DNA from: a phage
Sequence record: PZ049723.1
Length of the DNA stretch: 44,509 bases
Strand: one strand, 5' to 3'
The notes under the pieces were generated by a model that was not told where the DNA came from, did not search any database, and saw only the letters and a list, made by a program, of their open reading frames with translations. Shown here piece after piece: positions 16,037 to 33,129 of the stretch. Position 1 is the first letter of the stretch; each line of letters begins with the position of its first letter. The translations under genes were made by a program, and so were the position numbers.

Positions 16037-16065
16037 TTGCAATCATCGTATTGGTTGCATATATT
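16037..16065 (+). promoter_or_regulatory. Sigma70-like promoter with embedded TTGGTTGCA motif pair
   Basis: TTGCAA (16037-16042), 17-bp spacer, TATATT (16060-16065); TTGGTTGCA at 16051-16059 and 16065-16073; GAGGA RBS and ATG at 16095 follow. Confidence 0.45.
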
Positions 16066-23307: not shown

Positions 23308-23337
23308 AGTATGGTCTGATAGTTGGTTGCAAGTCAA
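23308..23337 (-). promoter_or_regulatory. Promoter-like sequence at head of the structural operon
   Basis: Minus strand TTGACT (23337-23332), TGCAACCAA motif, about 18-bp spacer, CATACT (23313-23308); follows the lysis-operon terminator. Confidence 0.4.
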
Positions 23338-27433: not shown

Positions 27434-27664
27434 TTAATCTTTTAAATCATCATCGGTCGCAGAAAGCGTGATGGGTATACTCGTTTTAATGACAATATTC
27501 GACGACCCGTAGATGGCCCCGGTGTGCGGATCGGTATAAAAACCGAGCACGCCGCGCTCGACCATATCGTCGATTGCCTTCGTCGATGTGCCACCTTTCG
27601 CCAGCCCAGCCTGGCGGACAATTGCCGATTTACTGAATCCGGTATGGTCCGGGTTATCTTCCAT
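27434..27664 (-). CDS. Small HTH DNA-binding protein (putative regulator)
   Basis: ATG at 27664 overlaps the helicase stop (ATGA); 76 aa; helix-turn-helix-like SKSAIVRQAGLAKGGTSTKAIDDMVERG; a longer in-frame start at 27691 is possible. Confidence 0.5.
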   Translation of the reverse strand: MEDNPDHTGFSKSAIVRQAGLAKGGTSTKAIDDMVERGVLGFYTDPHTGAIYGSSNIVIKTSIPITLSATDDDLKD

Positions 27665-29040
27665 CAGTTTTTCCAGTGCCGCATAAAGCACTTTCTCTTT
27701 TCGTTGCGCGGTCCCGCGGCGTTCTCTTCCTTAACTGCTGCCTTGCCCGCGGCCTTCGCCTGTTCGATGGCGAACGGTGCCAGGGCGACCGGTACGAGGT
27801 ACAGAGTCTCGTCGCGAGGCGTGGAGGCAATCGGCTTGACGTCCCAACCGGCGACCACATCACCGAAGTCCGGCCCGGTGCTGGTGGACTGGTGGGCTTC
27901 GAACGCCTCGGACTTGCGGAGATCCACCTTAACCTTGCACTTGAGCAGGACGAAGCCGCGCGGCGCTTGCTTGATGCCGTTACGTGCCTTTTCGTGATAC
28001 AGGTTAAGTTGTCCCGGCTGGTTGTCGTCCGGCTGTTCCAGGAAGAACGCGGAATCAACAGCACCATGAAGCGCGCCGGACCCGCGTGGCGTTCTGCTGC
28101 CGTTTGCACCTTTAGCAGGGTGGTGGATGACGCCCGCACTGCCGCCTGTATTTTCCGCAATGGCCTTCAGCGCCTTGACCACTTCGCCCATATCGCTGGC
28201 GTTGTTCTCGTCGAACGGTTTAGCATCGGCGGACCGCAGCGCAACAGTCTGGTTGAGTGAGTCGAATGCCACCAGGCCAACCGGTTCGCCGTTAGCGGTG
28301 CGGTTGATAAAGCTGATAACTTCGCGCAAGCCCGATTTGCTGGTGATATCCCAGCCGCGTGACTGCAGATCGATAATGTGCAGCTTGTCCAGGTCGTGCT
28401 CGTATTTAATCTGCAATGCCTCCTTACGCTGGTTGGAGGCTTCGCCACCTTCCGCGTCGAAATAGAAGCAATGAGACTGGACGACCTTCGCACCGCCAAA
28501 CGGAATACCCGCGGCAACCGCACCCATCTGCCCCAGCACGTAGAACGATTTACCGATGTTCGATTCGCCAGCCATATACCAGGTCGATTTGAAGTTAATC
28601 AACCCCTCGATGATCGGGTCGTGCTTACTGAACAGCGCAACCGGCTCGTTGTCCAGGTCTGCATCGGTGCACACGCCGTATTCTTCGCCGTCGCCAACTG
28701 CATCAACGATATGTTCATAGCAGGATTCCACTTCCTCGTCGTCCAGTCCTGGAAGGATGGCGGCGATTTGCTTGCGGGACATATTGTGTGGCTCGACGTT
28801 CAGGTGGTCCGGGATCCCGATAAGACGCAGCGCCAGGTGCTGGTGTCTGTTCAGTTCCGAGCAACACTCGTTGCCGGTGTGCATACACTTGAAACGGATC
28901 TCGCCATCCTTGACCATGATAGCCGTCGACCCTTCGCCGCTGTGCAGATGTTCGTTCGGGCACGGCACTTCATAACCCCGACCGGACGACAGCGGTTCGA
29001 ATCCGGCCTGGAAGCACCAATCCAGAATGCCGTCAGCCAC
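27664..29040 (-). CDS. Replicative helicase with N-terminal Zn finger (RecA-fold, RepA/DnaB-like)
   Basis: Walker A GESNIGKS and Walker B-like LVAFDSL; N-terminal Cys/His cluster (CPNEH ... CMHTGNECC); ORF opens immediately after an in-frame TAA and has only a GTG start. Confidence 0.65.
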   Translation of the reverse strand: MADGILDWCFQAGFEPLSSGRGYEVPCPNEHLHSGEGSTAIMVKDGEIRFKCMHTGNECCSELNRHQHLALRLIGIPDHLNVEPHNMSRKQIAAILPGLDDEEVESCYEHIVDAVGDGEEYGVCTDADLDNEPVALFSKHDPIIEGLINFKSTWYMAGESNIGKSFYVLGQMGAVAAGIPFGGAKVVQSHCFYFDAEGGEASNQRKEALQIKYEHDLDKLHIIDLQSRGWDITSKSGLREVISFINRTANGEPVGLVAFDSLNQTVALRSADAKPFDENNASDMGEVVKALKAIAENTGGSAGVIHHPAKGANGSRTPRGSGALHGAVDSAFFLEQPDDNQPGQLNLYHEKARNGIKQAPRGFVLLKCKVKVDLRKSEAFEAHQSTSTGPDFGDVVAGWDVKPIASTPRDETLYLVPVALAPFAIEQAKAAGKAAVKEENAAGPRNEKRKCFMRHWKN

Positions 29041-29696
29041 CCCATCATCGCCCTGGGTAAGCTCGCGGCGTACTTCCTCTTCTCCACCCCCAGCTTATCC
29101 GCCAGGCGGAGCAGACGACGGACGCTGGCGCGTTTGCCGTAGTGGCACTTAACGACAGACTGCTGATGTGGCAGGTACATAAGGCGGTTTGTGTCTTTAG
29201 TACAATCGTCGAAGTCCACATCTGACAGACCCAGTTGGTGTAATAGTGCATACTGGACGCGGCCCAGGTCTTCAGCCGGTACAGGCTTGTCCGTGAGCAC
29301 CAGGAAACGGGCGCAACGCGTGCCGCCTTTCAGCGGGTGGCGGTCGCCGGTTGTGGTGTGAAATACGTGCTCCAGTCCCGCGTCGATGAACGCCTTACGG
29401 CAGCGGCGTAGGGTGCGGGTGTCGGTACGGTCGATATCGAAGAACATGATCGAGCGGTCCACCGCACTGGTCTTACGACGCAATCCGTCACGGGTATACG
29501 CCACGATGCCATCGGCCTTACGCTTGCGGCGCGCATACTCGGCTTTATCTTCCGTCTTGTTGATATGCACCGAGGAGATTTCTTTCGCATCATTGATAAA
29601 GGCGAAAAACTCTTCGGTAGTCATCTGGAAGTTTTCCGCCCTGGCTTTTTCGCCTTTTTTAGCGGGTCGTGTTACAGCGAATTTAATTAAGCTCAT
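28851..29696 (-). CDS. Primase-like replication protein, N-terminal part; 3' end overlaps helicase out of frame
   Basis: ATG at 29696; DxD-like FFDIDRTD and HTTTGDRHP motifs; last ~60 codons are Arg/Ser/Cys-rich and read as the wrong frame of the helicase N-terminus; G5 run at 29087-29091. Confidence 0.4.
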   Translation of the reverse strand: MSLIKFAVTRPAKKGEKARAENFQMTTEEFFAFINDAKEISSVHINKTEDKAEYARRKRKADGIVAYTRDGLRRKTSAVDRSIMFFDIDRTDTRTLRRCRKAFIDAGLEHVFHTTTGDRHPLKGGTRCARFLVLTDKPVPAEDLGRVQYALLHQLGLSDVDFDDCTKDTNRLMYLPHQQSVVKCHYGKRASVRRLLRLADKLGVEKRKYAASLPRAMMGWLTAFWIGASRPDSNRCRPVGVMKCRARTNICTAAKGRRLSWSRMARSVSSVCTPATSVARN

Positions 29697-29706
29697 TGCC
29701 GTGGCC

Positions 29707-30036
29707 TTACTTAGAAGTTTTATTATTGCGTACCCAAGAGCGCACTGTGCTCTGATTAATTCCGGTCAACTCGGCAATCATCGCCCAGGATTTGCCCTCG
29801 GCGCGCAAACGGATAACCTGCTTTTTGTATTCTTCCATTTCTTCATTGTGTTTTTGCAGCTTGCTTGCTGCCGTACCGTTGAGTAATTCCAGCCGGGCGC
29901 GCAATTCTTTTTCGACACTGCGCAGGCGCTCGATTTCAAATAACACCGCACCCACGGCATCGGTATAAGCCCATGACCGGCTTGTCTCACTGCAAACAGT
30001 CTTCGTTAACATTTCGATTGCGTCGTTTACATTCAT
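29707..30036 (-). CDS. HTH transcriptional regulator (LuxR/sigma region-4-like C-terminal HTH)
   Basis: 109 aa; C-terminal SWAMIAELTGINQSTVRSWV; first gene of the leftward operon from the divergent promoter region. Confidence 0.6.
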   Translation of the reverse strand: MNVNDAIEMLTKTVCSETSRSWAYTDAVGAVLFEIERLRSVEKELRARLELLNGTAASKLQKHNEEMEEYKKQVIRLRAEGKSWAMIAELTGINQSTVRSWVRNNKTSK

Positions 30037-30067
30037 TGTTCTGCCCTCAGTTGGTTAATGACCAACG

Positions 30068-30096
30068 AAACTACACCTAAAACCGCAAGGTGTCAA
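30068..30096 (-). promoter_or_regulatory. Leftward early promoter
   Basis: Minus strand TTGACA (30096-30091), 17-bp spacer, TAGTTT (30073-30068); about 30 nt upstream of the regulator gene RBS. Confidence 0.45.
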
Positions 30097-30166
30097 ATCC
30101 TTTGGATATTGAAACGGGCGCGCACGCGTGTAATAATAATTCCCGTCTCATTGTCTCTTATTGGTT

Positions 30167-30201
30167 AGCGCCGTCGCATTTTGCCTCGGCGCTTTTTTTT
30201 T
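30167..30201 (+). terminator. Rho-independent terminator in divergent promoter region
   Basis: agcgccg / cggcgct 7-bp stem with 13-nt loop followed by nine T residues. Confidence 0.6.
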
Positions 30202-30211
30202 AAATTAGTTG

Positions 30212-30241
30212 TTGACACCCATCCTGCAACCAATCTATTAT
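30212..30241 (+). promoter_or_regulatory. Rightward early promoter (strong sigma70 consensus)
   Basis: TTGACA (30212-30217), 18-bp spacer containing TGCAACCAA (30225-30233), TATTAT (30236-30241). Confidence 0.6.
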
Positions 30242-30437
30242 TCTCCCCGTCGACAGGATGCAGGACGCAAACTGGAGAGGGGCAACGCAGGGGCCGGATC
30301 GAAGTGTCAGGATTCCCAACCGTGATTATATAACCAGGTCCACTACCCGAAGGGGAGAACGCGTAACCTGGCAATATGTTAAGGCCACCGACGAAGTTAA
30401 CTGCCGACACCTAAACTTAACCAATCGGAGATATACC

Positions 30438-30950
30438 ATGTTTGAGCAAATCGTAAACCTGATCACTCGCGGCGTAGTAGCACTGGAAACCATCGCTAAA
30501 CATTATGAAACCGTTGGCGCTGCCGTTGGTAAGCAGGAGGACAAGAAGCCGTCTAAGGCCAAAAAAGAAGTTGTCGAAGATGACGACGATGACGCCGAAG
30601 ACGAAAAACCGGCTAAATCTAAAAAAGCCCCGGCGAAAGGCAAGGCCAAAAAAGAAGTCGTAGAAGACGACGACGATGCCGAAGACGAAAAACCGGCTAA
30701 GGCTAAGAAAGCACCGGCGAAAGGCAAAGGTAAGAAAGATGCCGATCCGCTGGCAGAGATGCGCGACGAGATCAAACAATATGCCGCGATTATCGCTGGC
30801 GGTGATGACGACGACGCGAACGACGAATTCGACGACCTGCTGGAGTCGTTCGAGATCAAATCAATCGCCAAGCTGGAAGATGACGACGTCGAAGACTTCC
30901 ACACAGAGCTAAAAGAAATCGTCGAAACCTATTTCGAATTGGAAGATTAA
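30438..30950 (+). CDS. Highly acidic tandem-repeat protein; first early gene (DNA-mimic / anti-restriction candidate)
   Basis: ATG at 30438 with GGAG RBS; 170 aa; two copies of KKEVVEDDDDxAEDEKPAKxKKAPAKGK and acidic C-terminus; followed by terminator. Confidence 0.65.
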   Translation: MFEQIVNLITRGVVALETIAKHYETVGAAVGKQEDKKPSKAKKEVVEDDDDDAEDEKPAKSKKAPAKGKAKKEVVEDDDDAEDEKPAKAKKAPAKGKGKKDADPLAEMRDEIKQYAAIIAGGDDDDANDEFDDLLESFEIKSIAKLEDDDVEDFHTELKEIVETYFELED

Positions 30951-30956
30951 TATATT

Positions 30957-30986
30957 CCGGCCCGCTAATCTGCGGGCCTCTTTTTA
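30957..30986 (+). terminator. Rho-independent terminator after first early gene
   Basis: ggcccgc-taatct-gcgggcc stem followed by TCTTTTT. Confidence 0.6.
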
Positions 30987-30998
30987 GAGGACGAGACA

Positions 30999-31250
30999 AT
31001 GGCACGATTCACGCTAATCGAGGCGGTGGACTCCCGCGACCAGCGCCCATATTATTGGCTATTCGAACGCATCGGCAATTTTCAGTCACGCGTTGCCGTA
31101 ATAGACAAGCGCCGCAATACCCCCGCGCAAATTAAGCGCACCACCTTTATTAATCCCGACTTTTATATTTGGGCGGATTCCAATCTGGAATTTGTTCGCT
31201 TCGCAGTTGCATCAGAAGCAAAAACAATCGACCGCTGGGAGACAAAATAA
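30999..31250 (+). CDS. Hypothetical protein
   Basis: 83-aa ORF, ATG at 30999 with AGAGG RBS. Confidence 0.5.
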   Translation: MARFTLIEAVDSRDQRPYYWLFERIGNFQSRVAVIDKRRNTPAQIKRTTFINPDFYIWADSNLEFVRFAVASEAKTIDRWETK

Positions 31251-33104: not shown

Positions 33105-33129
33105 CCGCTTAGGCGCAACCAAGTAGATT
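33101..33129 (+). promoter_or_regulatory. Promoter-like sequence upstream of SSB-like gene
   Basis: TTGACC (33101-33106), 17-bp spacer containing GCAACCAAG (33115-33123), TAGATT (33124-33129); second GCAACCAAG at 33131-33139. Confidence 0.4.

Follow-up and report, generated by a model that had tools for sequence, protein, structure and literature searches.

The divergent control region of PZ049723.1

The sequence record PZ049723.1, whose full 44,509 nt we refer to as the window, holds the essentially complete 44.5-kb genome of a Dhillonvirus, a siphophage (HK578/SO-1-like) of Escherichia coli. From position 1 to 30036 every gene lies on the minus strand (the structural genes, then a helicase-primase gene, then the gene of a helix-turn-helix (HTH) protein), and the early and replication genes occupy the plus strand from 30438 to about 42844. 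With minus-strand genes to its left and plus-strand genes to its right, the gap between these opposed blocks (30037-30437, 402 nt) is the phage's single divergent control region. It holds a leftward promoter (P_L), the main rightward early promoter (P_R) and, between the two, the element studied here: a promoter, P_s, followed by a short stretch and an intrinsic terminator, which together would specify a small non-coding RNA (Table 1). Because the ~30 kb upstream is transcribed leftwards, this plus-strand terminator (30167-30201) follows no gene and can be reached only by transcripts born in the intergenic region. Of the 193 phage records that match the control region, 141 do so over at least 80% of the query; identity is mostly 90-99%.

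Table 1. Features of the divergent control region and adjoining genes, with the variable columns in an alignment of 27 Dhillonvirus sequences
Feature	Position	Strand	Description	Variable columns
HTH protein gene	29707-30036	-	109 aa; Pfam HTH_23/Sigma70_r4_2	
Candidate target 3, ribosome-binding region of the HTH regulator gene, UAACCAACUGAGGGCAGAACAAUG	30032-30057	-	predicted duplex -17.5 to -18.8 kcal/mol	
P_L, leftward promoter of the HTH/helicase-primase operon	30068-30096	-	TTGACA 30096-91, 17-bp spacer, TAGTTT 30073-68	46/72 (P_L region)
P_s -35 hexamer	30109-30114	+	TTGAAA	1/6
P_s spacer				4/14
P_s extended -10	30129-30137	+	TGtAATAAT; hexamer AATAAT 30132-30137, TG 30129-30130, 17-bp spacer	0/9
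P_s discriminator and predicted start (-6..+1)	30138-30144	+		7/7, 1-3 nt indels
Predicted non-coding RNA	30144-30201 (product 30144/30145 to ~30199)	+	~55-58 nt; from promoter geometry and terminator	
Conserved single-stranded 5' segment, candidate seed, GUCUCAUUGUCUCUUAUUGGUU	30145-30166	+	22 nt	1/22
Terminator hairpin	30167-30193	+	7-bp lower stem, 2x2 internal loop, 3-bp upper stem, UUU loop	2/7 and 2/6 (stem arms)
U/T tract	30193-30201	+	T9; 8-13 T in relatives	
P_R, main rightward early promoter	30212-30241	+	TTGACA, 18-bp spacer, TATTAT; 11/12; annotated in HK578	
Candidate target 1, gene 1 ribosome-binding region, UAACCAAUCGGAGA..AUG	30418-30440	+	14-nt inverted repeat, 86% complementary	
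Gene 1, first rightward gene	30438-30985 region	+	170-aa acidic lysine-rich protein	
Strong terminator directly after gene 1	30959-30985	+	GGCCCGC..GCGGGCC TCTTTTT	
Candidate target 2, gene 2 ribosome-binding region, GAGACAAUGGCAC	30992-31006	+	9 contiguous Watson-Crick pairs with the RNA 5' end	

P_s and the terminator delimit a short predicted RNA

P_s matches the sigma-70 consensus at 10 of 12 positions and carries a TG extension. The whole genome holds four sites of at least 10/12 on both strands, against 3.9 expected from shuffled sequences; of these, P_s alone has the TG extension (0.19 expected). We estimate a chance of ~0.005 that a site this good would occur on the right strand within the ~100 nt before the terminator. 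An earlier reading of the region from its letters and open reading frames (the sequence-only reading) had recognized the same TTGAAA, which is present as described, and had paired it across a 16-bp spacer with TAATAA at 30131-30136. Those letters are there, but AATAAT with a 17-bp spacer is the better register, and the predicted +1 lies 1-2 bases from the start near 30143 that had been proposed.

The P_s -10 region (30131-30139) sits in an (AAT)3 microsatellite, which counts four copies in phage RuthEpting_Bas85 (L018). Immediately past (AAT)3, 1-nt indels occur in several phages, so that the -10 register and the start can shift between strains.

In the terminator, AGCGCCG (30167-73) pairs with CGGCGCT (30187-93) to form the lower stem. 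The hairpin folds at -16.7 kcal/mol (z = -3.35 versus shuffles) and is one of the most stable of its kind in the genome; the T9 that abuts it is the longest T run in the genome. An automated terminator scan missed it solely because the apical part is larger than the loop limit of the scan. The strong terminator with nine T residues that the sequence-only reading had placed at 30167-30201, ahead of the main rightward promoter, is found exactly there, with compensatory changes in its stem in addition, and the -35 box of P_R begins 11 bp past the T tract.

The T tract lies at -55..-47 from the P_R start, and together with AAATTAGTTG (30202-30211, invariant in 27 sequences) it spans -55..-38 and resembles a sigma-70 UP element. 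Its position makes it probable that the T tract also acts as the distal UP element of P_R, and the same bases may serve both as terminator tail and as P_R enhancer.

Both elements have been annotated before, separately and in different GenBank records: the promoter in HK578 (GenBank/RefSeq NC_019724) and the terminator in WF5505 (NC_073060). No record annotates an RNA. We infer transcription itself, and the exact RNA ends, from promoter geometry and terminator. Because the promoter-plus-terminator unit is real and strongly conserved, a 55-nt non-coding RNA is most likely made, and on the same grounds P_s is likely to yield it as a discrete short transcript.

In the predicted RNA, the candidate seed is unpaired in both the minimum free energy (MFE) and the centroid folds, as are the 27 nt 5' of the hairpin. 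A conserved and accessible seed, a promoter of its own conserved in silico among relatives, a Rho-independent terminator with a long U tail as 3' end and the lack of coding capacity are all found here, as they are in small RNA (sRNA) genes. No open reading frame (ORF) begins downstream of +1, and the only plus-strand ORFs across the unit (30058-30168 and 30090-30203) begin upstream of P_s. The ~55-60 nt RNA without coding capacity envisaged by the sequence-only reading is thus non-coding as proposed, with a predicted length of 55-58 nt.

Small ORFs on either strand were ruled out by indels and frameshifts in relatives. This bears on a different account of the conserved block, namely that it provides the ribosome-binding site for a minus-strand micro-ORF (AAGAGACA-ATG at 30152, 19-26 codons) expressed from a leftward promoter near P_R. 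The reverse complement does read as a Shine-Dalgarno (SD) sequence, spacer and ATG, and the automated annotation of RuthEpting_Bas85 calls small minus-strand coding sequences there. However, the translations are frameshifted among relatives (LLLHACAPVSIS versus YYYTRARPFQYS), the 19-26-aa products differ in their C termini, and no acceptable leftward promoter lies to its right: a promoter scan gave none on the minus strand at this place, where the best site read by hand (TTGCAG-16-TAATTT) reaches ~6/12. We consider this account barely credible.

Two other RNA classes were tried and rejected. A cis-antisense RNA has no partner, the nearest minus-strand gene beginning at 30036 and P_L firing leftwards from ~30061, so that nothing lies on the opposite strand. 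An attenuator or riboswitch leader does not fit either: only ~23 nt are available ahead of the stem, and neither the MFE structure nor the centroid structure nor any variant shows a competing fold. Rfam 15 scans of the region and its homologs, at E values up to 10, gave no family at its gathering threshold (GA); the best overlapping matches, ncS54 (18.1 bits, GA 43) and STnc480 (22 bits, GA 72), are terminator-driven chance. Additionally, no homolog or host mimic was found by BLAST in 5,426 E. coli genomes.

Conservation follows the outline of a transcription unit

We aligned 27 distinct Dhillonvirus sequences from GenBank, IMG/VR and metagenomes. Across the control region, the pattern of variability follows the logic of a transcription unit, beginning and ending where such a unit would (Table 1). 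The promoter elements, the 22 nt after the predicted start and the hairpin are kept, and every column from -6 to +1 varies. There is little sequence constraint between a -10 box and +1, so variability is expected there.

In the clade of Ioannina, LM40P1 and L013, the four variable stem columns correspond to two base pairs with fully compensatory changes on both sides, one from G-C to U-A and the other from G-C to C-G. These changes were read directly from the homolog sequences; MAFFT placed the hairpin of the distant relative L016 out of register.

L016 (IMGVR_UViG_3300045988_050407) has a helicase-primase only ~68% identical to that of the window, and its intergenic region is not BLAST-alignable. 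It nevertheless rebuilds the layout with different sequence: TTGCGC-17-TATTAT, a 35-nt segment that retains the 10-nt seed core CTCATTGTCT, a 7-bp stem (TCCCCAG/CTGGGGA) in a hairpin of the same shape as that of the window, and T13, all placed just upstream of its own P_R. The anatomy proposed by the sequence-only reading (promoter, an untranslated stretch of ~24 nt, terminator, then P_R) is therefore backed by comparative data that include this relative.

At L016 positions 2340-2400, which correspond to 30060-30140 of the window, a leftward TTGCAC-17-TATATT and the TTGCGC-17-TATTAT promoter overlap on opposite strands, centered on the near-palindrome CTTGCGCGCGTATAGTGCAAG. RNA polymerase could probably bind just one of these promoters at a time, which would make them a possible switch.

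These comparisons also bear on the proposal that there is no transcription unit at all, and that the conserved sequences are DNA-level elements, either part of a replication origin or a protein-binding cruciform, with the promoter hexamers incidental or part of the site. Replication genes adjoin the region, and an AT-rich tract stands beside a GC-rich inverted repeat. However, the retention of the -35 and extended -10 elements while the 7 bp before and at +1 vary is a promoter-specific signature, and L016 has promoter-like boxes at the right spacing in a different sequence. Moreover, the stem changes keep pairing and not sequence, which argues against sequence-specific protein binding, and no iterons were found in the region. 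We judge this proposal improbable.

Homologous helicase-primases occur in Shemara (Cornellvirus), eiAU-183 (Eiauvirus) and L AB-2017 (Kagunavirus), and the divergent intergenic regions of these three phages lack the module, which is therefore Dhillonvirus-specific among these sister genera. A metagenome scan by alignment of the HTH protein and a pattern scan of IMG/VR returned close Dhillonviruses and chance matches only, so that the comparison spans three clades.

P_s stands between two early promoters

P_L, whose counterpart is annotated in HK578, lies back to back with P_s, and 12 bp separate the two -35 boxes. The spacer of P_R carries the motif TGCAACCAAT, the consensus of the 8-mer GCAACCAA, which has 20 copies in the genome against 1.98 +/- 1.45 expected. 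Examples are found at 16051/16064, 23323, 26284, 26977/27008, 27099, 27379/27414 and 30226, and further sites at 33115/33131, 36752, 39709/39726, 41630/41642 and 44461. The copies are mostly intergenic and often paired 13-35 bp apart or palindromic; some lie inside promoter spacers, including those of P_R and of TTGACT-TGCAACCAAC at 23323. In L016, the P_R spacer has two tandem copies of the motif. P_s of the window has none. Probably, GCAACCAA serves as either an operator or a phage-specific promoter element, and the HTH_23/Sigma70_r4-like protein encoded at 29707-30036 is a candidate binder.

In another explanation, what matters is transcription as such, with the RNA as a by-product. P_s would compete or cooperate with P_L through RNA polymerase occupancy or local supercoiling, the terminator would exist only to stop P_s polymerases that otherwise occlude P_R 11 bp further on, its T tract also acting as the P_R UP element, and the 22 nt would function as a DNA operator to which a phage or host regulator binds. 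The close spacing of the -35 boxes in the window, the physical overlap of the promoters in L016, the end of the terminator 11 bp before the P_R -35 box and the fit of the invariant 30202-30211 to an UP element are all consistent with this explanation. Moreover, the abundance of GCAACCAA (20 versus ~2 expected) indicates that the phage uses short DNA regulatory motifs, and the 22-nt segment holds a degenerate copy of it (TAACCAAT) as well as a GTCTC direct repeat. However, the segment differs from GCAACCAA at 2 of 8 positions, and no other good copy of GTCTCATTGTCTC occurs in the genome. Insulation requires the terminator alone, not a conserved transcribed sequence of 22 nt, and the compensatory stem changes indicate selection on the folded strand. 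As a full account of the locus we find this explanation rather doubtful; as an additional role of the unit, insulation or interplay with P_L may well apply. The same holds for the alternative that the sequence-only reading had offered, in which the terminator merely insulates P_R: it is possible as an extra role, but by itself it leaves the strong purifying selection on the promoter and the transcribed 22-nt segment unexplained.

Given the terminator at 30959-30985 directly after gene 1, the downstream replication genes need read-through or additional promoters. P_s and its terminator might form a constitutively terminated antitermination leader of the lambda P_R'-t_R' type, with a phage factor driving read-through both here and at 30959-30985 and thereby boosting the replication genes later in infection. 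A constitutive-looking promoter followed by a terminator, upstream of an operon with further terminators, is in keeping with this idea, and a precedent exists in StxS, the short terminated P_R' transcript of Shiga-toxin phages, which is itself a functional sRNA with regulatory activity of its own (PMC7547250). Like StxS, the predicted RNA is short and would arise from a phage promoter (constitutive in StxS, constitutive-looking here) with termination immediately downstream. Unlike the StxS locus, a late-gene antitermination leader of a temperate lambdoid phage, the present one belongs to a virulent phage, has no evident antiterminator and has a separate consensus promoter past the terminator, since the genes lie beyond P_R (11/12). 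These are early and replication genes, not late ones. Furthermore, a Pfam scan of five neighboring proteins found no Q-like family, and with only 23 nt ahead of the hairpin there is no alternative antiterminator fold. We regard this mechanism as very improbable at this locus.

The predicted RNA 5' end is complementary to neighboring ribosome-binding regions

Pairing of the candidate seed was computed against the ribosome-binding regions of the flanking genes. For gene 1, 30154-67 pairs with 30418-31 over 14 nt, with a predicted duplex energy of -16.6 to -17.7 kcal/mol (p 0.0045 against shuffled seeds). For gene 2, the contiguous pairs span the SD sequence and the AUG, over GAGACAAUG at 30993-31001; this site is identical in all Dhillonviruses checked except L016, where a different gene stands. 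The ribosome-binding regions of the HTH gene and of gene 3, the third rightward gene, likewise pair with the RNA. Among the 63 ribosome-binding regions of the phage, these sites rank second (HTH gene), third (gene 3), fourth (gene 1) and twelfth (gene 2).

In three clades, the summed pairing of the seed with its own three neighboring sites beats that of shuffled seeds (p 0.001, 0.013 and 0.002). Additionally, of the genome's six TAACCAA copies, three fall within the control region (400 nt), oriented so that the RNA would complement both flanking mRNAs. This computed pairing of the RNA 5' end with neighboring ribosome-binding sites is only suggestive.

A structured leader RNA downstream of P_R and other features

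Between the P_R -10 box (30236-41) and the start of gene 1 lies a structured leader RNA of ~160 nt (30249-30408, plus strand), with the long invariant blocks GGAGAGGRGCRACGCWGGGGC, GATCGWAGTGTYAGGATTCCYAACCGTGA, AGAACGC and AGGCYRCCGACGAAG. It is shared at 77-94% identity by unrelated enterobacterial siphophages: Drexlerviridae slyngel, KMI8 and PHB17, Murrayvirus Lumpael, Jilinvirus Arya, HeidiAbel_Bas97 and several IMG/VR contigs. In every carrier it occupies an intergenic gap (~240 nt in most), a few bases past a -10 box and on the strand of the flanking genes, and among Dhillonviruses it is cleanly present or absent.

Across 11 distinct leader sequences, 97.7% of cells pair, and 14 of the 32 base pairs show double compensatory changes; slid alignments gave at most 3 such pairs, and none of 500 shuffles reached the observed value. 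Rfam 15 scans gave no match to the leader. As a candidate for a new phage RNA family, the leader is well supported. For its role there are ideas only: a put-like antiterminator, a leader resembling a riboswitch, or a non-coding RNA that is processed. The structured leader, a more striking by-product of the analysis, merits separate study.

The gene 1 protein contains an internal tandem repeat (KKEVVEDDDD..EDEKPAK.KKAPAKGK), annotated as a repeat_region in phage welsh, and a Pfam scan of the protein gave no match. In the helicase-primase gene (27664-29696, minus strand), a 1-nt deletion near 29078 (TACTTCCT-CTTCTCC), absent from 20 of 20 aligned relatives, divides the ~755-aa protein into overlapping ORFs at 28851-29696 and 27664-29040. 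Either this is a sequencing error, or an essential replication gene carries a true frameshift.

Discussion

We identified in the divergent control region of a Dhillonvirus a conserved promoter-terminator pair that encloses a 22-nt conserved segment without coding potential or cis-antisense partner. The explanation that we tentatively favor, with confidence that stops just short of even, is that this is a self-contained transcription unit of Dhillonviruses that makes a ~55-nt Hfq-type trans-acting sRNA acting on neighboring early mRNAs.

In this model, host sigma-70 RNA polymerase would start at the extended -10 promoter P_s, back to back with the leftward early promoter, and would halt ~55 nt on at the strong intrinsic terminator, just ahead of P_R. 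The product would open with 22 nt of unstructured, pyrimidine-rich RNA, and a U-rich stretch, a GC hairpin and finally a long U tail would complete it. Minimal Hfq-type sRNAs are built in this way, and Hfq may take part in the action of the RNA. Its 5' end (UGUCUCU..., CAU, UUGGUUA) would base-pair with SD and start-codon regions, the best candidate targets being the HTH regulator gene and the first three rightward genes, with host mRNAs as a further possibility. As the RNA builds up, translation of its targets would be dampened. Translational repression of neighboring early genes is thus the leading but unproven function of the RNA.

Several observations weigh against this explanation. The complement of the seed resembles the generic ribosome-binding site GAGACAAUG and pairs moderately with many such sites; the best neighboring sites lie only ~2 standard deviations from the mean of all 63 ribosome-binding regions, the gene 1 site is merely in the top 4% of windows genome-wide, and a genome-wide duplex scan shows many equally good sites and no unique target. 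In a cross-clade control, non-cognate combinations of seed and target pair as well as cognate ones, which speaks against specific co-evolution, and in the Ioannina clade the gene 1 site has changed from CCAAUC to CUAAAC with no matching change in the RNA. The compensatory stem changes stem from one clade only, L013 has a 2-bp deletion in the P_s spacer, and part of the conservation of the T tract and the hairpin flank could be due to a role as UP element of P_R. Finally, a literature search found no Dhillonvirus transcriptome or RNA immunoprecipitation data and no report of the RNA.

A more specific version of the model is that the RNA is a dedicated anti-SD/anti-start-codon riboregulator that, once it has built up, shuts off translation of both flanking immediate-early operons (that of the HTH gene and that of the gp46/gp45-like genes) and that might in addition act on host mRNAs via Hfq. 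We consider this version unlikely; if true, it would constitute an RNA-based early-to-middle timer in a strictly virulent siphophage.

Known trans-acting, Hfq-type sRNAs with 5' seeds include prophage-encoded examples: RybB, DicF of the Qin prophage, and AgvB and AsxR of enterohemorrhagic E. coli prophages. The predicted RNA resembles them in its sigma-70 promoter, its length (~50-80 nt in this class), its non-coding nature, its conserved and unstructured predicted seed at or near +1, its GC-rich Rho-independent terminator with a U tail of at least 8 and a U-rich stretch upstream, and its complementarity to SD and start-codon regions. Unlike these sRNAs, the Dhillonvirus unit lies in the divergent immediate-early region of a strictly virulent siphophage, has no similarity to Rfam families or E. 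coli genomes, and has the phage's own neighboring genes as candidate targets.

OOP of lambda and sar of P22 are phage RNAs of ~70 nt that run from a dedicated promoter to an intrinsic terminator in the early control region and act on early gene expression as cis-antisense RNAs overlapping their target gene. The predicted RNA is likewise short, would likewise run from a dedicated promoter to an intrinsic terminator and lies within an early control region. In contrast to OOP and sar, it overlaps no gene or transcript on the opposite strand, the P_L transcripts being predicted to start at ~30061 and to run away from it.

A conserved sRNA gene in Dhillonviruses is therefore a new but unsurprising proposal, since phage sRNAs and short terminated transcripts are already known kinds. 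Cataloguing of the regulatory RNAs of virulent phages has so far been poor. Among coliphages, Dhillonviruses are both common and easy to handle; several are in the BASEL collection, others are studied as candidates for therapy, and their early gene control is unstudied. If our explanation is correct, the unit would be a regulatory element that annotation pipelines miss, as they now record the promoter or the terminator only, in separate records. Moreover, a conserved minimal sRNA unit at the early switch would offer a tractable model for RNA-based timing of the lytic cycle.

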